Assembly: GCA_038045485.1 (NCBI GenBank)
Contig: JBBSYA010000052.1
Span: forward strand, 1 to 34,912
Length of the DNA: 34,912 bases
Origin: Nanobdellota archaeon
Lineage (GTDB): Archaea > Nanobdellota > Nanobdellia > Pacearchaeales > GW2011-AR1
Direction of reading: 5' to 3'
In this document: piece by piece, positions 4,431-21,280 of the stretch
Position numbering within the stretch: the first letter of the stretch is position 1
Layout: each line of letters opens with the position of its first letter
Translations under genes and position numbers: made by a program
Notes under the pieces: generated by a model
Databases searched by the model: none
What the model was told of the DNA's origin: nothing
What the model saw: the letters and a program-made list of their open reading frames with translations, nothing else

Positions 4431-4476
4431 AATCGACTATAATAAATCTTAAAAACCCAAAATTAATAGAAAAACA

Positions 4477-4674: not shown

Positions 4675-4759
4675 AACACCCCCTATTTTGACTCGCTTCG
4701 CTCGCTTTTTTCTAATTAGTGCTGCGCATAAATTTTCAATAAACTAAAAACTAACAATT

Positions 4760-4794: not shown

Positions 4795-4896
4795 GAAGTT
4801 GGAAGCAAGAAAGCGAGAGGAGCTCTCTGCTAAGGAGATTAACCCCTATTAATCTTCTACAATAATCTTTAAAAACTTAAAATAATAAAAATTAAG

Positions 4897-5223
4897 ATGA
4901 ATTTACACACTATTTTTCAGAAAATCGGAGTAGCATATGTTCGTTACGCTGAATGGAGAATGAATAAAATTATAGGCGTTGAAACAGAAAAGCCAAAAAA
5001 TTCTTCTGCAGATTACTCTTGGAGCGATTGGTGGAATGCTGCAATTACTCTGCATAGAATGAATCCAGAAGAGAGAAACAAAAGATTCTATAATATGCCT
5101 ACCCCCGAACCCGACGCTTTTTTAGAACAACTTGCTGAAGAGGCTTATAATGCAAAAATACAGAAAAAAAGAAAATCCACTATTCCAGAGACAGTATTAA
5201 CCGAAAGAGACCCAAGATGGTAA
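4897..5223 (+). CDS. Small hypothetical protein (108 aa)
   Basis: ATG preceded by AATCTTTAAAAACTTAAAAT box, near-identical to the one upstream of 4477. No recognisable domain. Confidence 0.45.
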   Translation: MNLHTIFQKIGVAYVRYAEWRMNKIIGVETEKPKNSSADYSWSDWWNAAITLHRMNPEERNKRFYNMPTPEPDAFLEQLAEEAYNAKIQKKRKSTIPETVLTERDPRW

Positions 5224-5347
5224 TAGCTTAAAAACCCCAAATTCTACAATTAATTATAACTTAACACTATTTTCAAGCGAAGCGAAGAGAGATAGCTAAC
5301 TCTAGGGAAAAACTCGCGAAGAAAAACAGTTAGGTTTGTCTTACAAC

Positions 5348-6400
5348 ATGACAGAAAAAGATTACAGCGGAGCAACAACTTCAAAGATAGGCAAAAATGC
5401 CAAAGCAGGAAATGAACTTTCTAAACTAGTTTCTGCAATAAAAGGTGAAAAAAAGCATTCTGAAGCTAAAAAACAAGAAGATGAGAATTCCTCGGTTCTT
5501 TCTAAAGAAGATATTCAGAACTACAAAAAAGCAGGTGAAATAGCTAAAAAAGTAAAAGACTATGCAAAATCTATAGTTAAAAAAGATGAAAAACTTATTG
5601 ATATTGCTGAAAAAATAGAAGCAGAAATTCTAAAACTTGGCGGACAAATCGGTTTTCCAGTAAATCTAAGTATTGATGATGTTGCCGCGCACTATACTCC
5701 AACTCTTCGTGATGAAAAAAAAGCTGAAGGCTTGCTTAAGATAGATATTGGTGTTCATGTTAATGGTTGCATTTGTGATATTGCTTTTTCTATGGATTTA
5801 ACTGCCGAAAAAAAATATACAAAACTCATAGAAGCGAGTGAAGCTGCATTAAAATCTGCTCTCGAAGTTATCAAACAATCAAAAGCCAATACAACTTTAA
5901 GCCAGATAGGAAAAGCAATACAAAACTCAATCGAATCAAAAGATTTTTCTCCAATTGTAAACCTTTCAGGACACGGACTAGATGAATTTGATATTCACTC
6001 TGGATTGACTATTCCTAACTATGATACTAAAAGCGATAAACAACTTGGAGACGGCGCTTTTGCAGTAGAACCTTTTGCAACCATTAAAAGCGGAAGCGGA
6101 ATGATTTATGAAAGTTCGGGCAGCAATATTTATCATATCTTAAAATTCTCACAGCCAAGAGAACCCTTTGCAAGAGAAGTTCTTGAATACATTGCAGAAA
6201 ATAAAAAAACCCTCCCATTCTCTCAAAGAGAACTCGAGAAAAAATTCGGCAGTAAAGCGCTAATTGCAATAAGCCAACTAAAACGAGCAGGAATAATCAA
6301 CGAGTTCGCTCAATTAGTAGAAAAATCTCATTCTCCAGTTAGCCAGACTGAAACAAGTCTAATTGTTCATGACGGCAAGGTTGAGATTCTTGTTGACTAA
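5348..6400 (+). CDS. map: Methionine aminopeptidase, type 2 (archaeal/eukaryotic class) with Lys-rich N-terminal extension
   Basis: Pita-bread motifs AAHYTP, DIGVHVNGCICDIAFS, SGHGL, AVEPFAT and a C-terminal SQTETS(L)IV. The ATG at 5348 is preferred to the TTG at 5336. Confidence 0.85.
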   Translation: MTEKDYSGATTSKIGKNAKAGNELSKLVSAIKGEKKHSEAKKQEDENSSVLSKEDIQNYKKAGEIAKKVKDYAKSIVKKDEKLIDIAEKIEAEILKLGGQIGFPVNLSIDDVAAHYTPTLRDEKKAEGLLKIDIGVHVNGCICDIAFSMDLTAEKKYTKLIEASEAALKSALEVIKQSKANTTLSQIGKAIQNSIESKDFSPIVNLSGHGLDEFDIHSGLTIPNYDTKSDKQLGDGAFAVEPFATIKSGSGMIYESSGSNIYHILKFSQPREPFAREVLEYIAENKKTLPFSQRELEKKFGSKALIAISQLKRAGIINEFAQLVEKSHSPVSQTETSLIVHDGKVEILVD

Positions 6401-6728
6401 AATTTCTTCCAGAAATAAGAGTTTCCAATATTTCATTTAATCTTTCTCTGGGCATTTCAACTCGTTTCACAGCAAGCATTACTAATTGTGAATCAGTCAG
6501 TTTTGCAAAACTTAGTTCAGCATAAACTTTAGAAGCGCCATTAGTCAAGCAGTATCCTGACTTTCGTTTAACAACATTATAATCAGCAAAATCCGGATTG
6601 GTATTCAGAGCAAGATTAAAACCATCAATAAATTTTCTCTCGTTAAATATTTCATGAAAATTAAGAAGATATTCATGCCTTCTATGAGAAGTTCCCCTTT
6701 TCAACACCTCAAATCTCATGTAAAACAA
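6339..6728 (-). CDS. Hypothetical protein (129 aa)
   Basis: AGTTATAAAC TATA-like box lies about 25 nt upstream on the minus strand. No recognisable domain. The 3' end overlaps the map 3' end by 62 nt (convergent). Confidence 0.4.
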   Translation of the reverse strand: MFYMRFEVLKRGTSHRRHEYLLNFHEIFNERKFIDGFNLALNTNPDFADYNVVKRKSGYCLTNGASKVYAELSFAKLTDSQLVMLAVKRVEMPRERLNEILETLISGRNFSQQESQPCRHEQLDLFQSG

Positions 6729-6810
6729 ATAGAAGTTCAGTTTATAACTATTATTGAGATAAAAGGGGATAATACCTAGCTTATTGTAACCTAAACCAAA
6801 GACTGATGAT

Positions 6811-6847
6811 TAAACAAAAGTCGAATTGGTGTTTAATGCATTATTAA
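6811..6847 (+). repeat. Intergenic repeat copy D
   Basis: TAAACAAAAGTCGAATTGGTGTTTAATGCATTATTAA. It has the same plus-strand orientation as copies A and B although the flanking genes here are on the minus strand. Confidence 0.6.
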
Positions 6848-6868
6848 TAATCCGTAATAAACGAAGTC

Positions 6869-7543
6869 TTACTTAACAATCTTATTCCAAAGTTCTACAA
6901 TAAACAACTTAGGCCATCCCAGCCAAGGAATTTTAAATACTGCAGTTCCTAAAACTTTGCTTTCTTGAATATTTCTTTCATCGGCACCATAATTATTATT
7001 TCCAGGAATTAATTGTGCTTCATTATGATCTCCTTTTGTCTGAATAGGATTTAATGAAATAACTCTATGAATAATGGGATGCGCAGAACCTGCCTCAAAA
7101 ATTAGAACATCTCCAATCTTAATGGTTTTCTTTTTAACAATAATCATAATATCTCCTTTTCTAAAACCATTTTTAAAACTAAAACTCGAAAACTGCTCCT
7201 GCGTTATATTAGTATTCTGCTCATACCAGCTTCCACAAGTTTGCCAATATTCTTCAGCATTGAAGGATTTGCTGTCACTAAAAGTTTTGCCGCAAATACT
7301 TATTACACTAGTCATATCCTGTAGAGAATGATGATCCATGCTTGAACTCTCGACTATTGCTAAAGGCAAGGAAGTTCCAAAGATTAATCCAAGTCCTGGA
7401 AGAAAAATAAATTTAATAAAAACAAAAACTATCGCAAGAAAAACAATATAACTCAACCAAGAATCAGAATTCCATAACCATTTCCAGAAATTCTTAAGCT
7501 TTGTTTTAACGTCTATTTTATCTTTATCCTCAGCATATTCCAT
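6869..7543 (-). CDS. Signal peptidase I, archaeal/ER Sec11-type (S26B)
   Basis: An N-terminal TM helix is followed by IVESSSMDHH (Ser nucleophile box), IIHRV (His box) and TKGDHNE (GDN box). Start set to MEYAEDK at 7543, because the upstream 81 codons of the ORF-track call look non-coding. Confidence 0.8.
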   Translation of the reverse strand: MEYAEDKDKIDVKTKLKNFWKWLWNSDSWLSYIVFLAIVFVFIKFIFLPGLGLIFGTSLPLAIVESSSMDHHSLQDMTSVISICGKTFSDSKSFNAEEYWQTCGSWYEQNTNITQEQFSSFSFKNGFRKGDIMIIVKKKTIKIGDVLIFEAGSAHPIIHRVISLNPIQTKGDHNEAQLIPGNNNYGADERNIQESKVLGTAVFKIPWLGWPKLFIVELWNKIVK

Positions 7544-7596
7544 AATAATTTCAGTGAAATAATCTTTATAAACATGACTTTCTCTTTTAGATAAAC

Positions 7597-7794
7597 ATGG
7601 ATCCATTCGCAGAAAAAGAGTTGATAGATAATTTGAGAAGTATTGCAATTTCCTTAAGAAATATGGATAGAAAAATGGACGATATGACTCTGTCCTTAAG
7701 AGAATTAGCTGCCTCTGAAAATGATAAAGATGATATAGATAATTCTGTAGAAAAAGAAGAAATTTCTGATAACCAGCCTTGCACAAAATATTAA
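7597..7794 (+). CDS. Small acidic coiled-coil-like hypothetical protein (65 aa)
   Basis: CTTTATAAAC box at 7564-7573 ends 23 nt upstream of the ATG. No recognisable domain. Confidence 0.4.
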   Translation: MDPFAEKELIDNLRSIAISLRNMDRKMDDMTLSLRELAASENDKDDIDNSVEKEEISDNQPCTKY

Positions 7795-7798
7795 CCTA

Positions 7799-8827
7799 TT
7801 AATGTGCAACCATCATACTTGCACAAGATTTAAAATCAATTTCTATATTAGATAAATAAATTTCCTGAGCCAATACACAAAGATTATGGCACAATATTTT
7901 GCATAAAATTTCATTAGTCTGTGAAATAGGATCCTTAAACATAACCGAATCAGAGAATCTTTGTTTTATCATAAAGAATCCAGATTCCGCATTTGAACGA
8001 AGATGATATTTCTCCATGAATTCTTCCCGATTATTCTTAAAATATTTGTATATTCTATTCCAAGCTGGAGCTCCTCTTGATTTTCCAGTAGCATTTTTTT
8101 TAAATGGAATATAGGGAGTTATATTTAGATCGTCCGCAAATTGTAAATTCTCCCTTGATGAATAAGCTAAATCTGCCGAAATTTCTTCAACATTAAAATT
8201 ATCTGCCGCATGTTGTAGTAATTCAATAAATCTGGGGGAATCAGCAGCAGTTCCATCAGTAATTATAGCATTAGCTATTATGTTGCTATGAACTCCATAA
8301 ATACAATGTGCCTTTTTGTATTGCTGGTGCATAGAGAATTTTTGCCTTGCTGAAACCCATCTTTCCATGTATTTTCTTTCAGAAAAACCAGTCGAGTCTA
8401 TTGCGAATTTAGTTTCTAGTTGAGCTACAGGTAATGCCGAGAGTTCTATAAGAAATTTTAAGTGTTTAGTTACATTGTGATTATCAAAATAATTACAGAT
8501 AGAATTAAAATGAGGAACACTATTAATAAAATTCTTGTTTCTGCATAATTCTAAGTCTGAAATAAGTCTTCTGGCAGATAATCCTGAATAAACCTTAAAA
8601 CACATACAAAAGATCATATGATTTACTGGTTGAGGATGTCTACCCTTTCCCGCATAAGGATTTCCCTCAGTCATGCTTGCTAATTCTTTTAAAAGATTCA
8701 ATACTATAATTTTCTCTCTGGTTTGAGAATTATTGTACGCTCTCCAGTTAAACGGCTCTTCTGCTTCAAAATTAGCCCATTCATCCATTGTTTTCTGCGG
8801 TTCTGGTTCTTTGTCATATACTTTCAT
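7799..8827 (-). CDS. DDE transposase (IS4/IS5-superfamily-like, DDE_Tnp_1 type)
   Basis: Candidate catalytic triad contexts are FAIDSTGFS, ISADLAYSS and RSNAESGFFMIKQRF. The N-terminal W-x-AYNNSQTREK motif is typical of this transposase class. Terminal inverted repeats not resolved. Confidence 0.8.
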   Translation of the reverse strand: MKVYDKEPEPQKTMDEWANFEAEEPFNWRAYNNSQTREKIIVLNLLKELASMTEGNPYAGKGRHPQPVNHMIFCMCFKVYSGLSARRLISDLELCRNKNFINSVPHFNSICNYFDNHNVTKHLKFLIELSALPVAQLETKFAIDSTGFSERKYMERWVSARQKFSMHQQYKKAHCIYGVHSNIIANAIITDGTAADSPRFIELLQHAADNFNVEEISADLAYSSRENLQFADDLNITPYIPFKKNATGKSRGAPAWNRIYKYFKNNREEFMEKYHLRSNAESGFFMIKQRFSDSVMFKDPISQTNEILCKILCHNLCVLAQEIYLSNIEIDFKSCASMMVAH

Positions 8828-8910
8828 GTTTGTGTTTCCTTGAATTTAATTTTACTATAACTAGTAAGCAGCCCCATAAGTTTTCCCCATAAACTGCTTA
8901 TATGTATTTA

Positions 8911-9012
8911 TAGTCTATTAACTCATAGTTAAGCCCCTTTATAAACTTTATGGATTTATAGACTAAAAACTATTAGACTATGGAAACATTTATATATGTA
9001 AATATAGTCTAT
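8911..9012. promoter_or_regulatory. Four TAGWCTA quasi-palindromic sites around the promoter of the AbrB/wHTH/GmrSD operon
   Basis: TAGTCTAT at 8911, ATAGACTA at 8958, TTAGACTA at 8973 and TAGTCTAT at 9005. GAAACATTTATATA (8983-8996) lies between sites 3 and 4, 22 nt before the ATG at 9018. Confidence 0.5.
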
Positions 9013-9017
9013 ATATT

Positions 9018-9239
9018 ATGGTAAAAAGTGGTGGAATTCCAAGAGAAGTCTTGAACGATTTAGATATAACTAAAAGAAGAGAGATAAAACCTGAAGAGGT
9101 AACCGTAATAGTAGAAAGACATCAAATTAAAATTCCCCTGCCAAAAAATGTTAGAATTAAACTAAATCTAAAGAAAAATACAAAATGCATTGTATCTTAT
9201 GATGAAGAAAATAAAGAGGTAAATTGCAAGTTCAAATGA
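9018..9239 (+). CDS. AbrB/SpoVT-like small DNA-binding protein
   Basis: HQIKIPLPKNVRIKLNLKKNTKCIVSYDEE matches the swapped-hairpin (x)IPKxIRxxLxLxxGxxV pattern. Confidence 0.55.
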   Translation: MVKSGGIPREVLNDLDITKRREIKPEEVTVIVERHQIKIPLPKNVRIKLNLKKNTKCIVSYDEENKEVNCKFK

Positions 9240-9445
9240 AAGAAAAATTAAATCCAATAGAATCTAAAATTATAACTGTTCTAGTCCAGAATGGAGATTA
9301 TATGACTACCGCGCAAATAGCAAAAGAAGCAAAAATCTCCTGGAATACTGCTATTAATTATCTCACTGCCTTTCATAAAAAAGGATGGGTTGAGAAAGCA
9401 GGAGATACAGTTATCTCTTGGAGAGCTATTTTGGAGGGTGAATAA
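9236..9445 (+). CDS. Winged helix-turn-helix protein
   Basis: MTTAQIAKEAKISWNTAINYLTAFHKKGWVEK is a wHTH pattern. The ATG at 9236 overlaps the upstream stop (ATGA), suggesting translational coupling. The ORF-track start at 9224 is TTG. Confidence 0.55.
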   Translation: MKEKLNPIESKIITVLVQNGDYMTTAQIAKEAKISWNTAINYLTAFHKKGWVEKAGDTVISWRAILEGE

Positions 9446-9476
9446 GTTTTTATAGAAGCTTAAAGGTAAATAAAAC

Positions 9477-11183
9477 ATGGTAAAAGCAGATATAAAGATA
9501 AGAGAACTTGTTGACAAGGTACAAAGAGGAGAACTAAAGCTCCCAGAAATGCAGAGAAAATATGTTTGGCCTGCAACAAGAGTTAGAGATCTTCTTGATT
9601 CCCTTTATCGTAAATATCCCTCTGGAACAATTTTAGTTTGGGAAACAGATGAAGATATTACCGATAGAAATTTAGCTATAAAAGCTACCAAAAGTCCAAC
9701 AACTTCTCAGAAACTACTTTTATTAGACGGACAACAAAGAGTTACGTCTCTCTCTGCAATTTTGTCAGGAGAACCTATTCAGGTTAAAAATAAAGATAAA
9801 CCTATTGAGATTTTATTTAATTTAGAACATCCAGAAGGTCCACCTACAGAATTAATAGAAGTTGATGAAAAAGATGTTCCAGAAGATTTTGAAGAAAATG
9901 AAGATGAAGAATCTGCTAGAGTAGATATTCAACAAGAATTAAAAAAGAGAACTTTTGTAGTTTCTACTAAAATGCTTAAAAATAATCCCCTATGGGTATC
10001 AGTTTCTGATGTTTTCAAAAAAAGCGAGAGTCAAATATTAAAACCACTTGGAATAAATTCTGATGATTCTAAATGGGAAAAATATTCTAAGAGGTTACAA
10101 GAATTAAAGAAAATTGAAGAGTATGAATATGTTATGCAAATATTAGATAAAAAAATGTCTTATGAAGAAGTAACTGAAATTTTTGTTAGAGTAAACTCTT
10201 TGGGTATTAAATTAAGGGGTTCTGATTTGGCACTGGCACAAATAACATCTAGATGGAAAGGATTTATGGGGCAACTAGAAAATTTCTCTTCAGAATTTGA
10301 TAAGGATGATGGGGAATATTTATTAAATTCAGGTTTACTCGTTAAAACACTTGTTTCATTCGCAACACACCAAAGTAAGTTTAAAACAGTTGGTAAATTA
10401 TCTCTGAAACAATTAGAAAGTTCATGGGAATTAGCTAAGAATGGAATACGTTTTGCAGTCAATTTCATAAAAACTAATGCTCGAGTTGATAGACTGGATT
10501 ATCTTTCTTCCCCTTTCTTAATTATTCCGATAGCTGTTTATGCAATTAATAATAAAGAAAATTTATCTAATGAAAACGAAAAGCTTTTGTTAAAATGGCT
10601 ATTTTACGCTCATATGAGGGGGCATTATAGTTTGGGCTCATCTGAATCTATTCTTGATGCGGATTTGTCTAGCCTATTTAATAAAAATAATCTTGAATAC
10701 TTAAACAATATTTTGTTAAATCAGGTAAAGAGATTCGAAGTTATTTCTGATGATTTAAAAAATAGGGGAACTTCAGGCCCTTTCTTTTCTATGTTATATC
10801 TTATATTAAAAGAAGGCGGGGCTAAGGATTGGTTTACTGGACTCCCTCTGTCAAACAAACATATCGGAAAAAGCCACTCTTTACAGTATCATCATATTTT
10901 CCCGCAATCTCTTCTAAAAGAGAAAGGTTTTGATAGAAAAGAGATAAATGAAATAGCTAATATGGCATTCATAGGTGGGAAGACAAATCGTACGATTACA
11001 AATAAAGAGCCAAAAATATATTTTGAAGATATAATTCAAAAAAAAGGCGAAGGAGCGCTTACTTCTCAGCTTATAACAATGAATAAGGAGTATTGGGAAA
11101 TAAATAATTTTCTTATTTTCACACAAAAGAGAAGAGAATTGATTGCAGAAGAAATAAACAAATTTATGAAAAAACTTGAATAA
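9477..11183 (+). CDS. GmrSD-like DUF262 (ParB-like NTPase) + DUF1524 (His-Me finger nuclease) protein, putative type IV restriction enzyme
   Basis: N-terminal LPEMQRKYVW...LLDSLYRKYPSGTI...LLDGQQRVTSL is the DUF262 hallmark DGQQR. C-terminal LQYHHIFPQS...NEIANMAFIGGKTN is a DUF1524-type H...N...N pattern. Confidence 0.85.
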   Translation: MVKADIKIRELVDKVQRGELKLPEMQRKYVWPATRVRDLLDSLYRKYPSGTILVWETDEDITDRNLAIKATKSPTTSQKLLLLDGQQRVTSLSAILSGEPIQVKNKDKPIEILFNLEHPEGPPTELIEVDEKDVPEDFEENEDEESARVDIQQELKKRTFVVSTKMLKNNPLWVSVSDVFKKSESQILKPLGINSDDSKWEKYSKRLQELKKIEEYEYVMQILDKKMSYEEVTEIFVRVNSLGIKLRGSDLALAQITSRWKGFMGQLENFSSEFDKDDGEYLLNSGLLVKTLVSFATHQSKFKTVGKLSLKQLESSWELAKNGIRFAVNFIKTNARVDRLDYLSSPFLIIPIAVYAINNKENLSNENEKLLLKWLFYAHMRGHYSLGSSESILDADLSSLFNKNNLEYLNNILLNQVKRFEVISDDLKNRGTSGPFFSMLYLILKEGGAKDWFTGLPLSNKHIGKSHSLQYHHIFPQSLLKEKGFDRKEINEIANMAFIGGKTNRTITNKEPKIYFEDIIQKKGEGALTSQLITMNKEYWEINNFLIFTQKRRELIAEEINKFMKKLE

Positions 11184-11287
11184 AATGGAAAATCAAAATT
11201 ATAGTAAGCATAGTAATAGAAATTAATAAGATTATTAAACTATGAATTTGGTATAAATATTGTAGATAGTAAGGGGGGTTAAAAAAG

Positions 11288-13705
11288 ATGGCAAACGAAA
11301 GAAATACTGAAAATATAGTTAGAGATCATTTCAAGAAAGATCCATTATATAATATAATTAAGTTAGAAGAACAAAAATCTTCTAATAAAAAAATTGATGA
11401 AATTTTACAATATTCTTCTAAATCTGGTTCGGGAGTAGGAAAACCAGAATTTTTAATTACATTCCCTTCTGGTGATGCAGATTATATCATTGTAATAGAA
11501 TGTAAGGCAGATATAACTCTTCATAAAAGCAAAAAAGAGGACAATCCCAAGGATTATGCAGTTGATGGTGTTATTAAATATGCTAAAAAACTTGCTGAGA
11601 AATTTAATGTAATTGCTATTGCAGTAAGTGGAGAAACAGAAAAAGAAATGTTAGTATCTCATTTCCTTTTTAAAAAACAGACAAAAACTTATAGTGAACT
11701 AAAAGAGGGCAATATTCTTTGTTCAATTAACGACTATTTAAGAATATTCGGTAATAATAATTTTGCAGATAATTTAAAAAATATAGACATCATCCAGAAA
11801 GCAATTTATTTGAATGAACTATATCAATCTTATTCTGTAACAGAGAATACTCGATGTACGATGATTAGTGCAATTCTTGTATCATTACTTGATGATCCTT
11901 TTAGAAGTAGTTATAATAAATACAATTCCTCAGCTTCACTTGCTAAAGCAATACTTTCTGCAATTCAAAATGTCTTAGAAAAAAATAATGTGAAAGGCAA
12001 GGGAGAAATGCTTGGAGAATATAACAAAATATTAAATGAGCCTCTTTTTAAAGAAGAAAAAATAAAACATCGAGATGAAAAGGATTACCAATTATCCATA
12101 GAGATTAATAAGGGAATAATAGATTATATTCATGAAAATGTTTATCCACTGGTAGATATGGAACAAAGCGGATTTGATGTTCTTGGAAGATTCTATACTG
12201 AATTCATTAGATATGCGGGAAGTGAACAAAGTCAGGGATTAGTACTAACGCCGTCACACATAACGGATCTTTTTTGTGATTTAGCAAATATAAACGAAAA
12301 TAGTATATTATACGATCCTTGTTGTGGCACTGGTGGATTTTTAATTGCTGGAATGAAAAGGATGTTAAAACTAGCTGGAGATCGAGAAACTAAAATAAAA
12401 TCTATAAAATCAAAACAATTAATAGGCGTTGAATTACGCCCTTCCATGTTTACATATGCTTGTTCTAATATGATGATGAGAGGAGATGGGAAATCAAATA
12501 TTTATTGCGGAGATTGTTTTAGCCTAGAAAATTCAGTAATGAAAAATCATAAACCCAATATTGCTTTTTTAAATCCCCCTTATGATGTTGGAAATGCTGG
12601 GCAAATGAGATTTATAGAACATGCATTAAAAGTAGTTGAACCTCAAAATGGCATTGTAGTAGCAATTGTTCAGATGAGTTGTGCATTTAAAAATGAAAAA
12701 GAATTAATTGCAATTAAAAAAAGAATATTAGAAAAAAATAGATTAATTGCCTCCCTTTCAATGCCTGATGATTTATTTTATCCCATTGGGGTTATAACAA
12801 CCATTATGGTTTTTAAGGCTGGAGAAAAGAATGAAAAGAAAAAAACATGGTTTGGATATTTTAAAGATGATGGGTTTGAAAAAAGAAAGCACAGAGGGAG
12901 AATAGATGCTAGATCTAAATGGTTAGAAATAAAAGATAAATGGATAAGAGCATATAATAATCTTGATGAAGTTCCTGGCATTTCTATTAAAGCAGAAGTA
13001 ACGGAAGAAGAAGAATGGTGTGCAGAAGCTTATATGAAAACAGATTACTCTGTTCTTTCAGAAAAAAACTTTGAGAATAAAATGAGGGACTATGTAGCAT
13101 TTACTATAGAATCAAATACAAGTGCGAATACAAATTCCAAAATTGGAGAAAAAATAAAGAAAAAAAACATTTCTTTATCTGAAAGAAAATGGAAGTGGTT
13201 TAAATATGATTCTATTTTTGAAATAAAGCATGGATTTTATAATAGAAAACCAGATACAAATCCTAACGGAGAGATAATTTTTATAGGGGCTACTGAATTA
13301 AATAATGGAATAACTTCACATCATAAAATAGAAGATATAGAGGCAACGCCCAAAGCAGAAAATGCACCAAATGTGCCTCTTAAAGAAAAAATATTTGAAA
13401 AAAATAGTATTACTGTTTCAAATAATGGTTCTGTTGGATATGCTTTCTATCAACCAATAAATTTTACTTGTTCTCATGATGTAAATCCCCTATATTTAAA
13501 AGAAAAAGAGTTAAATAAATACATTGCAATGTTCTTATGTCCCTTGATAGAATTAGAACAGTATAGATGGGCATTTGGTAGAAAATGGAGACCAATAAGA
13601 ATGCCTCTATCTGAAATAAAATTACCTATAAATGAAAAAGGAAATCCTGATTGGAATTTTATGGAAAATTATATTAAATCTTTGCCTTATAGTTCAAACT
13701 TATAA
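11288..13705 (+). CDS. Single-polypeptide restriction-modification enzyme: PD-(D/E)xK nuclease + gamma-class N6-adenine methyltransferase + one HsdS-like TRD (Type IIG/IIB-like)
   Basis: N-terminal GDADYIIVIECKAD is a D...ExK motif. The methylase part has GLVLTPSHITDLF, motif I DPCCGTGGFL and motif IV FLNPPYD. The C-terminal roughly 190 aa look HsdS-like (WKWFKYDSIFEIKHG ... IRMPLSEIKLPINEKGNPDWNFMENYIKSL). A GGGGGT SD-like sequence precedes the ATG. Confidence 0.85.
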   Translation: MANERNTENIVRDHFKKDPLYNIIKLEEQKSSNKKIDEILQYSSKSGSGVGKPEFLITFPSGDADYIIVIECKADITLHKSKKEDNPKDYAVDGVIKYAKKLAEKFNVIAIAVSGETEKEMLVSHFLFKKQTKTYSELKEGNILCSINDYLRIFGNNNFADNLKNIDIIQKAIYLNELYQSYSVTENTRCTMISAILVSLLDDPFRSSYNKYNSSASLAKAILSAIQNVLEKNNVKGKGEMLGEYNKILNEPLFKEEKIKHRDEKDYQLSIEINKGIIDYIHENVYPLVDMEQSGFDVLGRFYTEFIRYAGSEQSQGLVLTPSHITDLFCDLANINENSILYDPCCGTGGFLIAGMKRMLKLAGDRETKIKSIKSKQLIGVELRPSMFTYACSNMMMRGDGKSNIYCGDCFSLENSVMKNHKPNIAFLNPPYDVGNAGQMRFIEHALKVVEPQNGIVVAIVQMSCAFKNEKELIAIKKRILEKNRLIASLSMPDDLFYPIGVITTIMVFKAGEKNEKKKTWFGYFKDDGFEKRKHRGRIDARSKWLEIKDKWIRAYNNLDEVPGISIKAEVTEEEEWCAEAYMKTDYSVLSEKNFENKMRDYVAFTIESNTSANTNSKIGEKIKKKNISLSERKWKWFKYDSIFEIKHGFYNRKPDTNPNGEIIFIGATELNNGITSHHKIEDIEATPKAENAPNVPLKEKIFEKNSITVSNNGSVGYAFYQPINFTCSHDVNPLYLKEKELNKYIAMFLCPLIELEQYRWAFGRKWRPIRMPLSEIKLPINEKGNPDWNFMENYIKSLPYSSNL

Positions 13706-14380
13706 CCTCGCAATCTTACCAGCATCAGTAAGTTCTATTCCTTTTTCTGTAGAAACTAAATCCATATCCTTTAGTTCGTCAATTGCTCGGTATAGCATTG
13801 CCGTAGATAAATCGATTTTAGCTGCTAAATCTCCAATAGATTCGTACTTCTTTTTTCCGACTTCTTCAAGAATTTTCTTTTGGCTTTCAGTTAAATGAAA
13901 ACTTAGTCTTGGAAGATAAACAATAGAACTTTTATCTTCTTCAGGATTGTAAGCAATCTTACTAACTCGTTCGTGCCTGGCGTAAGCTGCAAAAAGCAAT
14001 CCAATAGCCTTAGTTTTCCTTCCAGCAGTAATATTCACAAAAATATGATCTTCTTTCGGCTGTAAATCAATAACCTCTACAGCTTTTCGAGCCACTTCAA
14101 CTATATCATAAACATCAGTCTTCACAATTTTTATCTCTAGAACCTTCCCTAATGATTCCTGGATGAGTTTTACAGAAGCTTCCTGTTCTTTATCAGGATC
14201 CTTATCAATTAGAAGTATAAGTCTCTCAGGCCCGAGCCGTGTCGCAGCCAAAAGAACTGGTTCAGGATTATATAATGTCGCGATAAGCACCTTTTTTCCC
14301 ATGATTTCTTCGTTTGCCTGGTTTTCAGGCTTAATTTCCTCAATAATAAAGGGTTTTTCTTCGTTTATATAAGTTTCCAT
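13700..14380 (-). CDS. csa3: Csa3-like CARF + wHTH transcriptional regulator (cas_HTH type)
   Basis: The Rossmann-like N-domain has KKVLIATLYNPEPVLLAA and NITAGRKTKAIGLLFAAY, a CARF-type Thr/Gly loop. The C-terminal wHTH is LTESQKKILEEV...SIGDLAAKIDLSTAMLYRAIDELKDMDLV. Overall architecture is colinear with Sulfolobus Csa3 as I recall it. A TATA-like sequence on the minus strand (14402-14410) supports the 14380 start; an alternative ATG is at 14302. Confidence 0.65.
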   Translation of the reverse strand: METYINEEKPFIIEEIKPENQANEEIMGKKVLIATLYNPEPVLLAATRLGPERLILLIDKDPDKEQEASVKLIQESLGKVLEIKIVKTDVYDIVEVARKAVEVIDLQPKEDHIFVNITAGRKTKAIGLLFAAYARHERVSKIAYNPEEDKSSIVYLPRLSFHLTESQKKILEEVGKKKYESIGDLAAKIDLSTAMLYRAIDELKDMDLVSTEKGIELTDAGKIARL

Positions 14381-14485: not shown

Positions 14486-15970
14486 ATGGTTAATAATTTA
14501 CTTAAACAATTTATAAAAGAATCAAGTCTATCTGAAAATAATAAACTTTCTATTAAATTTCTAGTCGATTCCATAAATGGAGAAATAAATCAGTTTACAG
14601 ACAAGTCTTATCTTTTTGAAGGCAGCCCAGGTATAGGAAAAACTTATTTTGTAGAGAGTTTTCTTAAAATGTTAGATTTTCCTGTTTTATATCTTGGTCC
14701 TTTCAAATTAGAAGGAAAGAATATAAGAAAATTTGATAGTCTTAAACAAATAATGGAAGAAATCCATAGTTTAGAAAAAGGAATAATTTACTTAGATGAT
14801 ATACAAAATTCATTAGAATTCGAAAGAGACGGCATGGGCGATCCTCATTTAAATGATATTGAAGGTAAAAGATTCCTAAATTTATTAGAATTAGTCAAAA
14901 GAAGCAACAAAAAGTTATTTCTTATTATGACTGTTAATGACTCGAGTTTTATGGAAGATTCTTGGAAGGATAGAATAGAAACTTTTATAGATTTATTGGA
15001 GCCTTTTGAAAAAAGCAAAAAGATTTTTCTAAATAAAAAATATGGTAATTTAATAGGTAAAAATATAATCAATGAAATTGCCTCTAAATCAATTGGTTAT
15101 AATTTTAGAAATCTTGATGAAGTAATAAGAATGGCTTATCGTTTTGGTAATGGAATAATTAATCTCAAATCTACAAACAAAGCATTTTCTAGCTATACTC
15201 CTTCTGGGCTTGCAAACTATGATATTGAATTTAAATCAAATTTGAATTTTAACAATGTTTTCGGCCATAACAAAATAAAAAAGGAACTGAAAAAATTAGC
15301 ATTATATAAAAATAATAAAAATAAACTAGACAAATTACAAATAAAAAGAAATAATTTTTTCATATTCTCTGGAAATCATGGTATAGGAAAAACTCATATG
15401 GCGCGAGCATTAGCTGGTGAGTTAAAATTGCCTTTAATTAAAATTAGCGCGTGGGATATTCATTCACCCAGACATGGAATTACTAAAATAATGAACACAG
15501 CTAGCCGATACAAGAATTGCATTATTCTTATTGATGAGGCAGATAAATTACTAGGTCTACATGCTTATTCTATGGAAGAAGAAGGGGTTTTGCTTGGAGA
15601 AATGAATCGGCAAATAGATGATGCTGCCAGAGAAATTAAATCAATAATAATTCTTTCAGTTAATAATCTAACTAGACTTGGAAAAGCTATGAAAGATAGA
15701 TTTACTGTATTGGAGTTCAATAATCCGCCAATAGAAGACAGAAGAGAATTTGTAAATAATCTAATAAGCAAAAGTGGACTAAACCTTTCAGTAACTGCCG
15801 AAGATATTGCTCAAATGACAGATGGCAGAAATTATAGGGATATTCAAAGAATTTGGAATGATGTAGTCTTTTATTATTTAGAAAATAAAGAAATGGATAA
15901 GAATATTCTTACCGATTTAATTGTCCCCATCAATATTAATGAAAGGAGAGTTCATACTGGAATTGGATAA
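14486..15970 (+). CDS. Tandem classic-clade AAA+ ATPase (two ATPase modules, no recognisable N-terminal substrate domain)
   Basis: D1 has Walker A GSPGIGKT, Walker B IIYLDD (no Glu) and an SRH-like WKDRIETFIDLLEP. D2 has Walker A GNHGIGKT, Walker B ILIDEADKL, sensor-1 LSVNN and AMKDRFTVLEFNNPPIEDRREF. Confidence 0.85.
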   Translation: MVNNLLKQFIKESSLSENNKLSIKFLVDSINGEINQFTDKSYLFEGSPGIGKTYFVESFLKMLDFPVLYLGPFKLEGKNIRKFDSLKQIMEEIHSLEKGIIYLDDIQNSLEFERDGMGDPHLNDIEGKRFLNLLELVKRSNKKLFLIMTVNDSSFMEDSWKDRIETFIDLLEPFEKSKKIFLNKKYGNLIGKNIINEIASKSIGYNFRNLDEVIRMAYRFGNGIINLKSTNKAFSSYTPSGLANYDIEFKSNLNFNNVFGHNKIKKELKKLALYKNNKNKLDKLQIKRNNFFIFSGNHGIGKTHMARALAGELKLPLIKISAWDIHSPRHGITKIMNTASRYKNCIILIDEADKLLGLHAYSMEEEGVLLGEMNRQIDDAAREIKSIIILSVNNLTRLGKAMKDRFTVLEFNNPPIEDRREFVNNLISKSGLNLSVTAEDIAQMTDGRNYRDIQRIWNDVVFYYLENKEMDKNILTDLIVPININERRVHTGIG

Positions 15971-17040: not shown

Positions 17041-17124
17041 GAAATAGGTGGGGATTCGAACCCCAGAAGGCACTAAGCCATTCGGTTGACAACCGAACCC
17101 GTTTGACCGCTTCGGTACCCTCAA
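17041..17124 (-). pseudogene. tRNA-like sequence: class-II-type body, GUC in the anticodon position, no pairable acceptor stem
   Basis: Read on the minus strand, the D arm is CCG-AAGCGGTCAAA-CGG. The anticodon arm is TTCGG-TTGTCAA-CCGAA. The long variable arm is T-GGC-TTAGT-GCC-TTC. The T arm is TGGGG-TTCGAAT-CCCCA. The 5' TTGAGGG and 3' CCTATTT cannot pair. Confidence 0.4.
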
Positions 17125-17210: not shown

Positions 17211-17254
17211 TGACATTAGTAATGACATTATAAATGACATTAAAGATGACACAA
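17211..17254 (+). repeat. Four direct TGACAYWA repeats with exact 12-bp phasing (iteron-like)
   Basis: TGACATTA occurs at 17211, 17223 and 17235, and TGACACAA at 17247. The array overlaps the first ATG of the 17234 ORF. Confidence 0.65.
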
Positions 17255-17446
17255 GCAAAATTGTATACTGAATCTGAATTAGGTTTTGAAAGAGTATTTG
17301 AAATAAGAATTAGGGATTTAAGGGAGAGAAAAGGAATAAAACAAAAGTCCTTTTCAGTATCCGTAAAGAAGGGGATCAAAGATACAGAATATCTTACCGC
17401 AGAAGAGATGAAAAATTTCCTTGAAAATAGGGTATCAACTAAATAA
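17246..17446 (+). CDS. Small hypothetical protein (66 aa)
   Basis: ORF with no recognisable domain. The second ATG (17246) is preferred because the first lies inside the repeat array, but the start is uncertain. Confidence 0.3.
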   Translation: MTQAKLYTESELGFERVFEIRIRDLRERKGIKQKSFSVSVKKGIKDTEYLTAEEMKNFLENRVSTK

Positions 17447-17483
17447 ATTTATAAATCGATTTAGGCTTAAATAAATAAGCCAA

Positions 17484-17981
17484 ATGGAAAAAATGATACC
17501 TTCAGTTTTTGGGAAAATATTAAATGGAAAATATACTCTAACTGGTGGATTTCAAATAATGAAAGTTTATTTAGATAAAAAAGAATATCCTTCATATGAT
17601 GAAGCCGAAGATTTGAGAGAACATCTAAATCTTGATGATCAGGGTTCGGTATGTGACTGCTTCTGTAAGATAAGAGCGACTAATCTGGGTGAAATTAATA
17701 TTCTTTTTGAAGATAAAAATTCAAATTCTGGTCATTCTAAAGATATGTTTAAGGCAATAAAACAACTAAATACGACCCATAAGGATTTAAAAACAAAAAA
17801 GAATGAGAACATAGATTTCGCCATAATTTGTAGGGTACCAGTAGAAACTTCTTTCAGGGCAAGATCTAAAGATAATTTCCCAGCAAAGGCATTATTTCCC
17901 GTTACTAATCCTAAAGAGCATATGACTTTAGATAGTAAAAATATTAAAGGATTTGGGGTTCCGCTATTATCACACCTTTAA
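17484..17981 (+). CDS. Hypothetical protein (165 aa), possible PD-(D/E)xK-like fold
   Basis: SVCDCFCKIRATNLGEINILFEDKNS gives a D-x19-E-D-K spacing reminiscent of Hjc/restriction-endonuclease cores. This is only a pattern match and no other motif supports it. Confidence 0.45.
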   Translation: MEKMIPSVFGKILNGKYTLTGGFQIMKVYLDKKEYPSYDEAEDLREHLNLDDQGSVCDCFCKIRATNLGEINILFEDKNSNSGHSKDMFKAIKQLNTTHKDLKTKKNENIDFAIICRVPVETSFRARSKDNFPAKALFPVTNPKEHMTLDSKNIKGFGVPLLSHL

Positions 17982-17982
17982 A

Positions 17983-18858
17983 ATGGCATTATTTTTGAGT
18001 ATAAAAAATAAAAATAAAGAAAATTACAATTTTGATAGATTTAAAACCGCAATCATGATATTCTCAGAAATTTTTAAGAATTTTGAGATAAGAGATACTT
18101 CATTTTTATTTTACAAATATGAGCCCTATAAGGAATTTAATGAAGAATTTAAAAGACTACCCTTTGATTTGGGCATATTAGAAACTTTTATCAGAGATAA
18201 ACTAAAGAATATAAAAGCTGATTCTACTTATTATGGTTTAGAATTAGAATCTGATATTTTCGTAGATAATAAAAAGTTCAAACTTCTATTTGAATTGATA
18301 CCAAATTATAAGCCGAAATCTTATGACTTAAAAATAGATATTCTAGGGAATGGTTATGCCGAAATATTAGAAGACTTGGATAATTATTATCCTGAATTTA
18401 GGAAAGTAATGTTAGAGAATATAAAAAATTATAATGAAAAATTGGACAAAGGAAAACTATCAGGATTACAAATAGAAAAAGCAATAATGAGTGAATACAA
18501 TCAAGAAGTTCATGATATTGATACTTGGAATATGTTTTATTCAAAAAATCCTTCCGATATTATTGTTCACATATCCTCTGAAGATAAAAAGATAAAAGAA
18601 AGATTGATTTATGGAAATAAAAATAAATTTGCCCAGAGATTAAATATGCTTCAGCCATATATAATTAAATTTGCAGAATACGCAAAAGAAGCTAATGTTG
18701 AAATATCTCAGGGAAGTATTGCTATTCTTCCAAAAAATAAGAAAGCTATGGGGGACTTCATGGGAAAATTAAGAAAAAAAATCAATTTAGCTGTAGAAAA
18801 AGCATATTTAAATAAAAGTGATTATGAGGAAAAATTATCTGAAGCTTTTTTAGATTAA
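17983..18858 (+). CDS. Hypothetical protein (291 aa), no recognisable domain
   Basis: The ATG is 1 nt after the stop of the upstream ORF, so the two are tightly coupled. The ORF-track start at 17953 is TTG. Confidence 0.5.
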   Translation: MALFLSIKNKNKENYNFDRFKTAIMIFSEIFKNFEIRDTSFLFYKYEPYKEFNEEFKRLPFDLGILETFIRDKLKNIKADSTYYGLELESDIFVDNKKFKLLFELIPNYKPKSYDLKIDILGNGYAEILEDLDNYYPEFRKVMLENIKNYNEKLDKGKLSGLQIEKAIMSEYNQEVHDIDTWNMFYSKNPSDIIVHISSEDKKIKERLIYGNKNKFAQRLNMLQPYIIKFAEYAKEANVEISQGSIAILPKNKKAMGDFMGKLRKKINLAVEKAYLNKSDYEEKLSEAFLD

Positions 18859-18863
18859 TTTAA

Positions 18864-20252
18864 TTATTTTATACAACCAAAACCTTCTCTTGAATGACAC
18901 TCTTCCTTTAAGGAGCATACTCCTGTTTTATTCATAAAGGGACAGGGTGGTAGAGACAAAATATCTTTTTCTCCTTTCTCCAATTTCACGATTATCTCTT
19001 TAGTTTTAGCTAAGATTTCATTTGTATTTTTATAAGTAATTTCAAATGCCTGAATAAAATTATTTTTCTTTGGAGAAATTATGAATATAATCCCTTTAGT
19101 TTTGCCGTAATTAGCTACCACTATTCCTAGTTCTGCGATATAATATTCATTAGGTCTTGTTTGAATATTATTACTCATATTTGCTTTTACTATATATGGT
19201 ATTATTTTAGAATCTTGATTACCCGAACTTTTAGTATTAGCCCACCTATAGCCAACATGAAGACGTGGTTCTAGACTAGATTTAAATAATTCTTTTCTTT
19301 CACCAAAAGATAATTTAATTGGAAGTTTTTTAACAAGTGCCCCTAGAAATGATTGAGATTCTTTTTTTTCTTGATCATTTTCTCCATCTTCTTTAAGATT
19401 GTACTTTCTTGGAGAAATTATATTCCAAGTAGAAAAGAAATTTTTTGAAGCATGATACTTTGTTTTTACTTCTAGTAATCTTTTAGTCATCTCTTCATCG
19501 TAGGTTAAATTAATAGCTTGTTGCAACTGTTCTGTAGAAAGAGGTTCCAATTTATCGCAATTGCAAAGATTAGCCTCAAAAAACTGGCATCCTTTTTCAT
19601 GATACCTGCATCTGCCAAGGGAAATCGGATTCTTAGTTTTGATAGCTTCATCTAAAGTTTTTATTCTTGTTTTTATCAGTGAATCTATTTTGCTGGGATC
19701 TTTTATTTCTATTTTAAATGCTTTAAATGGAAATGTTCCTGAATCTTTCATAAAAATTAAATAATTTATTTTATCGTGAGAAGGATGAATAGCGGAATAA
19801 AAGCAGACTTGTTCTACATCTTGAGGATATTTAGATATTACTTCTTCAGCCGTTTCAGGAATTTCATTTTTAGTTTTTAAATCAAATATAGAATCTCCTA
19901 TTCTACAATCAATTCTGCCTTTAACTCCAGGTAAATCAACCCAAGCCCCATCAATATTTCCCTCATTAACTACAAAATCTGGAAATGTTTCTAACCATTT
20001 TCCTGTGATTCCATGTAATGTAGTTCCCCAATTAAGTTTTTTTTGTATGACCATGGGTTTTTCTACTTTTTCACTGGTTCTAGCCCAATAGGTTTGAGCA
20101 GGGTTACACAATTCAGTAACAATATAGTAATCTGCAACATTAGGTTTCTTTTTAGTATCTTGTATCATCATTCTTAACATTGAAGATAAAGATTCATTAT
20201 AGGTAAATCCCCCAGACACACGTTCATTTACGAAATCAACCATATTTTCCAT
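18864..20252 (-). CDS. Cas4/RecB-like PD-(D/E)xK nuclease with Fe-S-type cysteine cluster plus uncharacterised C-terminal half carrying a second Cys cluster
   Basis: In order: TELCNPAQTYW (N-terminal Cys), NWGTTLHG, GRIDCRIGDSIFDLKTK (D...D-x-K), QVCFYSAI (QxxxY), then CRYHEKGCQFFEANLCNC. The C-terminal end has PPCPFMNKTGVCSLKEECHSREGFGC. Confidence 0.65.
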   Translation of the reverse strand: MENMVDFVNERVSGGFTYNESLSSMLRMMIQDTKKKPNVADYYIVTELCNPAQTYWARTSEKVEKPMVIQKKLNWGTTLHGITGKWLETFPDFVVNEGNIDGAWVDLPGVKGRIDCRIGDSIFDLKTKNEIPETAEEVISKYPQDVEQVCFYSAIHPSHDKINYLIFMKDSGTFPFKAFKIEIKDPSKIDSLIKTRIKTLDEAIKTKNPISLGRCRYHEKGCQFFEANLCNCDKLEPLSTEQLQQAINLTYDEEMTKRLLEVKTKYHASKNFFSTWNIISPRKYNLKEDGENDQEKKESQSFLGALVKKLPIKLSFGERKELFKSSLEPRLHVGYRWANTKSSGNQDSKIIPYIVKANMSNNIQTRPNEYYIAELGIVVANYGKTKGIIFIISPKKNNFIQAFEITYKNTNEILAKTKEIIVKLEKGEKDILSLPPCPFMNKTGVCSLKEECHSREGFGCIK

Positions 20253-20361: not shown

Positions 20362-20529
20362 ATGCCAAAGGTATTTTATCAATGTCAAAATATTGAGTGT
20401 AATTCAATATTTGAGATAGACTATGAAACTAGAGAACCATTTTGCTGCGTAAAATGTAATAAACAAGTCGATTATGGATTAATTATAAAATATCTTATTT
20501 TAAGAGCATTGAACGATAAATTTTCTTAA
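20362..20529 (+). CDS. Small zinc-ribbon protein (55 aa; below ORF-track cutoff)
   Basis: MPKVFYQCQNIECNSIFEIDYETREPFCCVKCNKQV has CxxxxC...CxxC spacing. Confidence 0.3.
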   Translation: MPKVFYQCQNIECNSIFEIDYETREPFCCVKCNKQVDYGLIIKYLILRALNDKFS

Positions 20530-20752: not shown

Positions 20753-21280
20753 ATGGATATATTCGACAATCAAATTTTATGCAAAAAATGCAACAAGATT
20801 ATGAAGCCAACACTGATTTCTAAAAATGGATTTAATCTTAGAACTATTCGATGTGAAAAATGCAACGAAATTATTGTTCATCCTGCAGATAAGGCAGAAT
20901 ATGACGAATTTATGAGACTGAAGAATAAAGAATTCGAAGTAAAGATGAGAATGGTTGGAAACAGCTATGCTATTTCTATTCCGCGAGAAATTGTTGATTT
21001 TATGCACGAACAAGAAAATATGATGGATAACATGGTTAAACTTTGTTTTGATAATGCGAATCGATTGAGTCTAATGTTCAATACTCCTGAAAATGCTGAA
21101 AACGAAAACTCCAATAGAAGAGTCGTTAGCTCTAAAGAAGTTAGAATTGTTAGAAATAACAAACCAGTAATGCATGTTAAACAAGTTTATGATTCTGCAA
21201 ATCCTCAAAACAATCGCACTATACGAATAATTAAAAACAAACAAAATGGAAAAGAACAAGAAGAAATGGAGGAAGATTAA
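20753..21280 (+). CDS. Zn-ribbon + AbrB/SpoVT-like domain protein with Asn/Glu-rich tail
   Basis: CKKCNK...CEKCNE is a four-Cys ribbon. VKMRMVGNSYAISIPREIVDFM is an AbrB-type strand-turn pattern. Confidence 0.6.
   Translation: MDIFDNQILCKKCNKIMKPTLISKNGFNLRTIRCEKCNEIIVHPADKAEYDEFMRLKNKEFEVKMRMVGNSYAISIPREIVDFMHEQENMMDNMVKLCFDNANRLSLMFNTPENAENENSNRRVVSSKEVRIVRNNKPVMHVKQVYDSANPQNNRTIRIIKNKQNGKEQEEMEED

Follow-up and report, generated by a model that had tools for sequence, protein, structure and literature searches.

Cas4 nucleases such as SSO0001 (PDB 4IC1; PF01930/COG1468) combine a PD-(D/E)xK fold of the RecB type with a cysteine cluster whose canonical layout is C…CX2CX5C. Members of this family also occur outside CRISPR loci. 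Solo-Cas4 genes lying beside restriction-modification genes in DPANN archaea were proposed in 2017 to represent an uncharacterised defence pathway (PMC5704561), and solo-Cas4 is also found in Methanosarcina mazei (PMC5704561, PMC12501428). ACE1, an Argonaute-associated enzyme of the Cas4 family, sets a precedent for such nucleases in non-CRISPR immunity (PMC12094033). DPANN archaea seem to favour compact defence systems (PMC12988326) and few of their defence systems are recognised; what their solo Cas4-like nucleases do is a question that has awaited an answer since 2017 (PMC5704561). Here, we describe a 34,912-nt stretch of contig JBBSYA010000052.1 from a Nanobdellota archaeon (hereafter, the window) in which two open reading frames (ORFs), ORF1 and ORF2, converge on a gene encoding a 462-aa Cas4-like protein. 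We consider it likely that these genes belong to two independent cassettes placed side by side in a DPANN defence island: an operon consisting of ORF1, ORF2 and a small upstream ORF, ORF70 (cassette A), and a stand-alone tandem Cas4-like nuclease (cassette B). This reading is grounded in the anatomy of the genes, their conservation, the pattern of their linkage and the Cas4-like fold of the N-terminal domain of the 462-aa protein.

In comparison with the described systems, the N-terminal half of the 462-aa protein has the PD-(D/E)xK/RecB fold of Cas4, as judged from its model, and the same order of motifs, namely H/Q, D, (D/E)xK, QxxxY and then a Cys cluster. Like the solo-Cas4 proteins of DPANN archaea, the 462-aa family is non-CRISPR, occurs in small-genome archaea and is often encoded next to restriction-modification genes. 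Non-CRISPR solo Cas4 in DPANN archaea is a known class, and the 462-aa family is a divergent variant of it that matches nothing in Pfam, has its Cys cluster relocated and is internally duplicated. The ORF1–ORF2 pair matches no Pfam, NCBIfam, PHROGs or PADLOC model. The locus thus offers two concrete candidates: a strictly conserved operon of a putative nuclease and its partner, and a duplicated Cas4 derivative in which one copy appears to be inactivated and the cluster cysteines have moved.

Linkage of ORF1, ORF2 and the Cas4-like gene

ORF1 and ORF2 are separated by 1 nt, and the stop codons of ORF2 and the convergent Cas4-like gene are 5 nt apart (18859–18863; Table 1). The three encoded proteins are 100% identical to AABX17_03905, AABX17_03910 and AABX17_03915 in NCBI, from a Nanoarchaeota metagenome-assembled genome (MAG). 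The ORF coordinates and both spacings agree with those in a first-pass annotation of the window, which had interpreted the three genes as a single module.

To collect homologues, ORF1 and ORF2 were concatenated and run exhaustively with phmmer against 1.84 billion representatives. A word-indexed search had returned self-matches only, whereas phmmer returned ∼50 homologues; a label of ORFan based on the indexed search alone would therefore be wrong. Metagenome loci of the pair were found by scanning with a subset of closer ORF1 sequences, the full alignments having no sufficiently conserved stretch. An ORF1 homologue was followed by an ORF2 homologue in 10 of 10 checkable non-redundant loci (the window, L026/27, L028, L029 on a 106-kb contig, L030, L031, L032, L034, L035 and L036). 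At most, the two genes overlapped by 1 nt or were separated by 3 nt, except in L036, whose gene calls overlap and where ORF2 probably starts at 6034, still within the ORF1 homologue. The homologues were 25% to 51% identical, and the two families match in size (26 and 25 representatives, respectively).

By contrast, the Cas4-like gene did not travel with the pair. In a sample of 21 non-redundant Cas4-like loci that included the window, no ORF1 or ORF2 homologue was found beside the Cas4-like gene in any of the 20 other loci. Similarly, no Cas4-like gene of the 462-aa family was seen in any ORF1–ORF2 locus. Linkage of ORF1 to ORF2 is thus borne out, while the conserved linkage of all three genes on which the first-pass annotation depended is lacking, and the three-gene module fails for this reason.

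It is also very unlikely that ORF1, ORF2 and the Cas4-like nuclease act together as one defence system. Such a system could explain the proximity of the genes, the short distance between the two stop codons and the location of all three genes in a defence island. Further, L029 encodes, close to the pair, a DUF2779 protein with a Cas4-like N-terminus, which might point to a loosely shared functional theme. However, the genes are convergent, and hence not one operon; the pair and the 462-aa family are absent from each other's loci; and hhalign detected no relation between the DUF2779 protein and the 462-aa family (E value of 0.37). The 5-nt spacing is a matter of a small, densely packed genome rather than of co-function. 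More generally, tightly spaced convergent genes in a defence island are no evidence for a functional module.

The 462-aa protein and its family

The 462-aa protein had no match in Pfam, NCBIfam or PADLOC (E ≤ 0.1) and nothing significant in PDB sequence and profile searches. Neither PF01930 (Cas4) nor PF12705 (PDDEXK_1) matched any of 29 family members. Among the PHROGs, phrog_1706 (‘CRISPR/Cas system associated’) matched residues 30–271 with an E value of 7.6e-9. A word-indexed search of 5.8 billion proteins yielded 29 clusters of full-length homologues of 441–484 aa and 39–67% identity; the clusters with a source name came from Nanoarchaeota, Aenigmarchaeota and, in one case, Parcubacteria. 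In a pattern scan of 185,579 species genomes, the family was found in 16 loci, with a range that included Methanoregula, Hydrothermarchaeales, Thermoplasmata (among them the cultured Oxyplasma meridianum M1) and a few bacterial MAGs.

Inspection of the sequence revealed C49, G76..H80, G112-R-I-D115, D124-L-K126-T-K128 and Q148..Y152, in this order. The Cas4/RecB motif set reported in the first-pass annotation is therefore present, and its RecB motifs are invariant in the 29 homologues: D115, K126, D145, E147, Q148, Y152, C215, R216, Y217, C222, C230 and C232 do not vary, and position 124 is Asp in the query and Glu in the family. The RecB-type motifs D, (D/E)xK and QxxxY are kept in order in these close homologues and also in more distant relatives of 24–61% identity, from an alignment of 17 representatives. 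Relatives of 24–26% identity retain the catalytic and Cys residues, save one that has Gln at position 232. Given this invariance, the motifs exceed what chance would produce.

The cysteines required some revision. The first-pass annotation had listed an N-terminal Cys and a CX7CX8CXC cluster. The cluster is actually C215-x6-C222-x7-C230-x-C232. C49 is present in the query, but the position is Cys in only 13 of the 29 homologues and so cannot be a family-wide ligand. The ‘iron staple’ layout of Cas4, with one N-terminal and three C-terminal Cys residues, is thus not shared by the 462-aa family: in contrast to Cas4, the family has no conserved N-terminal Cys ligand, and all four Cys residues are C-terminal, in a Cx6Cx7CxC arrangement. 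The ligand of this first cluster may be either Fe-S or Zn, as the sequence does not discriminate between the two. A second cluster, C437-x8-C446-x5-C452-x7-C460, is an addition to the motifs first listed.

The AlphaFold2 (AF2) model of the 462-aa protein had a predicted local distance difference test score (pLDDT) of 86.3 and a predicted template-modelling score (pTM) of 0.81. According to Foldseek, its top match in the PDB was the Cas4 protein SSO0001 (4ic1), with an E value of 2.3e-4, a probability of 1.0 and a template-modelling (TM) score to target of 0.55–0.59. This match was moderate and limited to the N-terminal half, which is thereby predicted to have a Cas4/RecB-like fold. Together, the PHROG match, the invariance of the motifs and the match to SSO0001 uphold the first-pass description, in which a defence island carries a non-CRISPR, Cas4-like nuclease that has a Cys cluster.

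Further Foldseek matches of the N-terminal domain were LHK-Exo, MGME1, RecE and lambda exonuclease. These structural neighbours, like the nuclease domains of AddB and AdnAB, are all metal-dependent nucleases that process DNA ends. By contrast with the lambda exonuclease group, the 462-aa protein has no evident ring-forming or helicase partner, and sequence similarity to the group is undetectable. Moreover, its Cys clusters resemble the AddB/Cas4 type rather than lambda exonuclease. ACE1 (PDB 9IAC) was a weak structural match (E value of 0.047); ACE1 has a fixed pAgo partner, whereas the 462-aa family has no fixed neighbour.

The C-terminal half of the protein lacks the catalytic Asp and Glu and appears, from profile comparison and from the model, to be a degenerate copy of residues 1–245. 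Alignment of the two halves using hhalign gave scores of 31–33 (P of 5e-4 to 9e-4) over 182–187 columns in register, while seven controls, consisting of reversed or unrelated families, scored 11–23. The order of secondary-structure elements in the AF2 model repeats between the halves. Of the residues of the second cluster, C437, C446 and C452 are retained in 17 of 17 aligned representatives, distant relatives included; C460 is missing in some distant relatives, leaving a three-Cys cluster there. The protein is twice the size of Cas4, as expected if it gained, in tandem, a second copy that was inactivated and has a Cys cluster of its own. Such a derivative bears on the evolution of Fe-S ‘staple’ nucleases.

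Genomic neighbourhoods of the Cas4-like gene

A DNA methyltransferase gene lies within ∼6 kb of the Cas4-like gene in 8 of the 21 loci, and the remaining neighbours are of several kinds (Table 1). In the related loci, neither cas1 nor cas2 was among the neighbours that had been called or top-matched. The Cas4-like gene is a stand-alone gene that moves among defence and repair neighbourhoods.

We regard it as doubtful, though deserving of attention, that the tandem Cas4-like protein is an archaeal end-processing nuclease of DNA repair rather than an immune gene. The Lhr neighbourhood in Oxyplasma meridianum, a cultured organism that may be open to genetics, hints at a repair context, and the synteny with an Lhr-type helicase recurs in a second member of the Thermoplasmata. 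UvrA, UvrD or AddB-like neighbours in L003, L005 and L013 point in the same direction, as do the repair and recombination exonucleases among the structural relatives. The evolution of solo cas4 has also been mostly vertical (PMC5704561). Against a role in repair stand the very patchy distribution of the family, both in the species genomes and among the 5.8 billion proteins, the frequent restriction-modification, TIR, SLFN and AAA_13 neighbours, and the adjoining integrases.

In the two Thermoplasmata (L024, 584–5937; L025, 7929–13469, the latter Oxyplasma meridianum M1), a conserved 437-aa gene and the gene of a 907–924-aa protein come after the Cas4-like homologue. This protein is most likely the Lhr-type helicase, for which a pooled Pfam scan detected DEAD_assoc and WH_Lhr in two members.

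The type IIG homologues of L007 and L009, two related metagenomic contigs, are directly upstream of the Cas4-like gene and co-directional with it. In the window, by contrast, the type IIG gene and the Cas4-like gene occupy opposite strands at a distance of 5 kb, with the CARF, AAA+, tRNA and ORF1–ORF2 genes between them. This difference suggests that insertions or an inversion occurred inside an ancestral pair.

Tyrosine integrases flank the Cas4-like gene in L001 and L006, with type IV secretion system (T4SS)-like genes in one of these loci. In L001/L010, a Nanoarchaeota MAG, genes for a TraC-like ATPase, TrbC/T4SS-pilin-like proteins and a tyrosine integrase (1–3917 and 11312–12526) surround the Cas4-like gene and the Eco57I-type enzyme. 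The region looks like an integrative element of the conjugative type in a DPANN genome.

ORF1, ORF2 and the small upstream ORF

The ORF1 family has 26 members of ∼155–165 aa, with no variation at D31, D58, E76 or Q94 and conservation of 90% or more at K78. The first-pass annotation had recorded a weak, nuclease-like D-x19-EDK pattern in ORF1. The nuclease signature stands, but its spacing is D58-x17-E76-D-K78 and, in light of the conservation, it is not weak. ORF1 and ORF2 were modelled with AF2 as a linker-free fusion using unpaired alignment rows (mean pLDDT of 90.9). In this model, ORF1 consists of a helix (residues 7–17), three strands (23–30, 59–65 and 69–77), a second helix (88–106) and a further strand (112–116). 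D58 is located at the start of strand 2 and E76 and K78 at the end of strand 3. The placement of these residues on an α-β-β-β-α-β unit corresponds to the PD-(D/E)xK arrangement, and ORF1 is probably a PD-(D/E)xK nuclease.

ORF1 had no match in Pfam, PADLOC, PHROGs, NCBIfam or the PDB sequences; no family of PADLOC-DB v2 matched ORF1, ORF2 or the 462-aa protein at E ≤ 0.1. PDB profile searches with the ORF1 and ORF2 families likewise gave nothing significant. Structural prediction, which had placed the 462-aa protein with SSO0001, gave no significant fold match for either ORF1 or ORF2. ORF1 resembles the XisH family and small restriction-endonuclease-like proteins (PDB 2OKF and 2INB) in size, in its D…ExK motif and, weakly, in fold, with a TM score to target of 0.40 and a non-significant E value of 0.26–0.58. 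We take the XisH-family entries to have an endonuclease-like fold. XisH, too, belongs to a gene pair, its partner being XisI; in size, ORF2 (290 aa) has nothing in common with XisI, and no relation by sequence was shown.

The ORF2 family has 25 members of ∼290 aa. Its homologues with a complete N-terminus start with a MALYIKF-like sequence, which confirms the ATG at 17983 and indicates that the 267-aa NCBI call (AABX17_03910) starts 24 codons too late. ORF2, confidently modelled as part of the fusion, is an α/β protein. Foldseek yielded nothing at E ≤ 0.001 for ORF2 in the PDB or BFVD, and there was no Pfam or PDB sequence match. Matches of the ORF1–ORF2 model to kinesin and Rad50 were insignificant and not meaningful, and were set aside because no Walker A (P-loop) motif was seen in ORF2. 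According to hhalign, the relation of ORF2 to Cas4-like domains was also not significant.

A small ORF of 64–79 aa precedes ORF1 on the same strand in six loci (the window, L030, L032, L033, L034 and L036). In the window, this is ORF70, whose counterpart in L030 is its relative; those of L032, L033, L034 and L036, 64–69 aa in length, are of other sequence types. The small ORFs had no Pfam match. One type gives the impression, from its sequence, of a ribbon-helix-helix protein, and ORF70 is a possible DNA-binding regulator of the ORF1–ORF2 operon. An imperfect palindrome between ORF70 and ORF1 (Table 1) is a candidate archaeal promoter or operator; the region is AT-rich and the palindrome could have arisen by chance.

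The pair might instead be a restriction endonuclease, either a two-subunit type II enzyme with its methyltransferase elsewhere or a methylation-dependent type IV enzyme, but we consider this unlikely. In its favour, ORF1 has the PD-(D/E)xK signature, a C5 cytosine methylase is encoded just upstream of the pair in L029 on the same strand, and a type IIG enzyme is encoded nearby in the window. Controller proteins occupy an upstream position in restriction-modification operons, and the small upstream ORF is similarly placed. However, a methyltransferase gene is adjacent in only one of ∼6 loci with a readable upstream region and none is adjacent in the window; moreover, no REBASE-like or PADLOC restriction-modification model matches ORF1 or ORF2.

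An equally tight, translationally coupled arrangement could be expected if mobile elements carried ORF70, ORF1 and ORF2 as a toxin-antitoxin or addiction cassette, in which ORF1 is the toxin that ORF2, the small ORF or both neutralise, rather than as a dedicated antiviral system. The recurrence of the small ORF in six loci, the integrase-core transposase by the pair in L028, the possible mobile-element context of L036 and the low G+C content of the pair (27% versus 32% for the window) fit this explanation. Nevertheless, antitoxins are typically far smaller than ORF2, whose gene moreover follows that of the putative toxin, and no toxin-antitoxin family model matches any of the genes. Overall, such a cassette seems rather improbable.

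Proposed roles of the two cassettes

Under the two-cassette reading, ORF1 would be a small Mg2+-dependent PD-(D/E)xK endonuclease that cuts DNA. ORF2 would be made in step with ORF1, since a single nucleotide separates the ORF1 stop codon from the ORF2 start codon. The two proteins most likely form a complex, in which ORF2 may be the subunit that recognizes the target or licenses cleavage. Cassette A could then function as a compact, two-component anti-invader (restriction-like) or addiction module, with ORF70 as its transcriptional controller. The neighbourhoods of the pair in the window, L026 and L029 are of a defence type (Table 1).

Cassette B would represent a tandem duplication of a Cas4-like domain, with the D…(D/E)xK…QxxxY active site retained in the N-terminal copy. 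The C-terminal copy, having no active site, would probably serve as a built-in pseudo-dimer partner or DNA clamp, and each copy would be stapled by its own Cys cluster, with Fe-S or Zn. The protein most likely degrades or resects DNA ends, like Cas4, lambda exonuclease and AddB, and may act alone or after a restriction system, of whatever kind, has cut the invader.

Several observations weigh against this reading. The relative placement of ORF1 and ORF2 in the fused model is uncertain (pTM of 0.63), and the model yields no co-evolution or interface signal that could be used. ORF2 has no recognisable DNA-binding or sensing domain, and its role as given above is a guess. For ORF1, the best fold matches are the non-significant XisH-family entries, and comparison with the Cas4-like domain using hhalign gave no significant relation. 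Some Cas4-like loci, namely those of the Thermoplasmata by Lhr and those with UvrA and UvrD neighbours, fit repair equally. In addition, most contigs bearing the pair are short, such that the absence of a Cas4-like gene can be read only in L029 and L036 and partly in L026, L030 and L032. Finally, the L036 contig may be an archaeal virus or plasmid.

A bolder version of the two-cassette reading is possible but tentative. In this version, ORF70, ORF1 and ORF2 would constitute an undescribed, self-contained immune system, apparently of small-genome (DPANN-like) archaea, in which ORF2 senses invader DNA or a virus cue and licenses ORF1. Independently, the tandem Cas4-like protein, which has one active copy, one inactive copy and two Cys clusters, would add a new archaeal defence nuclease encoded by a single gene.

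Setting of the locus

The defence island is bounded by housekeeping genes, with PolB, RsmB and an M24 peptidase on the left and Cdc48 and heavy-metal ATPases on the right. It encodes a DDE transposase, GmrSD, a type IIG restriction-modification enzyme, a CARF-wHTH protein and an IetA-like double AAA+ ATPase. As stated in the first-pass annotation, the window contains no cas1, cas2 or AddAB gene; it also contains no CRISPR-like repeat.

A tRNA-Asp gene is located within the island, 360 nt upstream of ORF1, and is probably intron-bearing or atypical. Its position might suggest that the genes are virus or plasmid remnants, with functions in replication or recombination, that integrated at the tRNA. 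The closest profile of the Cas4-like protein being a phage family, phrog_1706, and the integrases near the Cas4-like gene in L001 and L006 would agree with such an origin. However, a scan of ORFs in and beside the island detected no integrase, nor does the window contain an att-like duplicate of the tRNA. Further, a mainly viral origin of the homologues, which the first-pass annotation had held up as the alternative to its module, found no backing in matches to IMG/VR, INPHARED phages or PLSDB plasmids: the pair and the 462-aa family had no homologue in IMG/VR, ORF2 and the 462-aa family had none in INPHARED, and ORF2 had none in PLSDB. We consider it most improbable that the genes are such remnants.

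Table 1. Location of the genes, domains and motifs discussed in the text, in the window and in related loci.
Feature	Locus	Positions	Strand	Remarks
ORF70	Window	17234–17446	+	70 aa; directly upstream of ORF1; 54% identical to counterpart in L030
Imperfect palindrome CTAAATAAATTTATAAATCGATTTAG with TTTATAAA box	Window	17439–17464		20–45 nt upstream of ORF1 ATG
ORF1	Window	17484–17981	+	165 aa
ORF1 catalytic segment (predicted), D58…E76-x-K78…Q94	Window	17655–17765	+	
ORF2	Window	17983–18858	+	291 aa counted from ATG
Cas4-like gene	Window	18864–20252	−	462 aa; convergent to ORF1 and ORF2
N-terminal Cas4-like PD-(D/E)xK domain, predicted catalytically intact	Window	19518–20252	−	aa 1–245
Catalytic core (predicted), D115…D124-x-K126…Q148xxxY152	Window	19797–19910	−	
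First Cys cluster, CRYHEKGCQFFEANLCNC	Window	19557–19610	−	After nuclease core
C-terminal half, putative degenerate duplicate of Cas4-like domain	Window	18867–19517	−	aa 246–462
Second Cys cluster	Window	18873–18944	−	Ends C-terminal half
Type IIG restriction-modification gene	Window	11288–13705	+	4 kb from ORF1–ORF2 pair
CARF-wHTH (Csa3/CasR-like) gene	Window	13700–14380	−	
Double AAA+ ATPase, IetA-like with nSTAND3 similarity	Window	14486–15970	+	
tRNA-Asp	Window	17041–17123	−	ARAGORN, 83 nt; Rfam, 35.6 bits, model positions 6–65
Zn-ribbon-type ORF, 55 aa	Window	20362–20529	+	
Zn-ribbon-type ORF, 175 aa	Window	20753–21280	+	
C5 cytosine methylase	L029	4980–5885		Directly upstream of pair, 104 nt, same strand
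DUF2779 protein, 495 aa	L029	8464–9951	−	Cas4-like N-terminus (CPKH…, DIIEVKAS); two genes downstream of pair, convergent
HsdM	L029	10044–11528		Near pair
PLD nuclease, SF1 helicase, Endonuc_Holl protein	L026			Context of pair
Integrase-core transposase	L028			Adjoining pair
Type IIG or N6_Mtase gene, homologous to 11288–13705 of the window	L007, L009	L007: 3358–5751; L009: 3428–5914		Directly upstream of Cas4-like gene
Eco57I-type enzyme	L001, L011			Near Cas4-like gene
N6_N4 methylase and ResIII/DEAD helicase	L006			Near Cas4-like gene
N6_N4 methylase	L018			Near Cas4-like gene
TerB_N, AAA_13, UvrD	L013			Near Cas4-like gene
TIR/SEFIR-TPR, SLFN_AlbA_2	L014			Near Cas4-like gene
nSTAND3, AddAB-like genes	L005			Near Cas4-like gene
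UvrA	L003			Near Cas4-like gene
Common neighbour run, most likely including Lhr-type helicase	L024, L025			Two Thermoplasmata; pooled scan, presumed assignment to loci

In the window, the CARF-wHTH and IetA-like AAA+ genes are divergent from each other, and there are neither cas genes nor a CRISPR array. The IetA-like ATPase has no obvious IetS-like protease partner in the window.

Among the loci of the pair, L036 has the most divergent ORF1 and ORF2 homologues. Positions 1–12951 of its 47-kb contig are occupied by co-directional ORFs with almost no Pfam matches, and one of these ORFs has a DPPY motif. Two neighbours of the pair in L036 gave nothing in a PDB sequence search. In L029, a gene for a TraG/HerA-like ATPase adjoins the pair.

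Two small ORFs of the Zn-ribbon type are divergent from the Cas4-like gene in the window. The 55-aa ORF contains a CxxC…CxxC motif, and the 175-aa ORF combines an N-terminal CxxC…CxxC motif with a weak SpoVT/AbrB (MazE-like) match.

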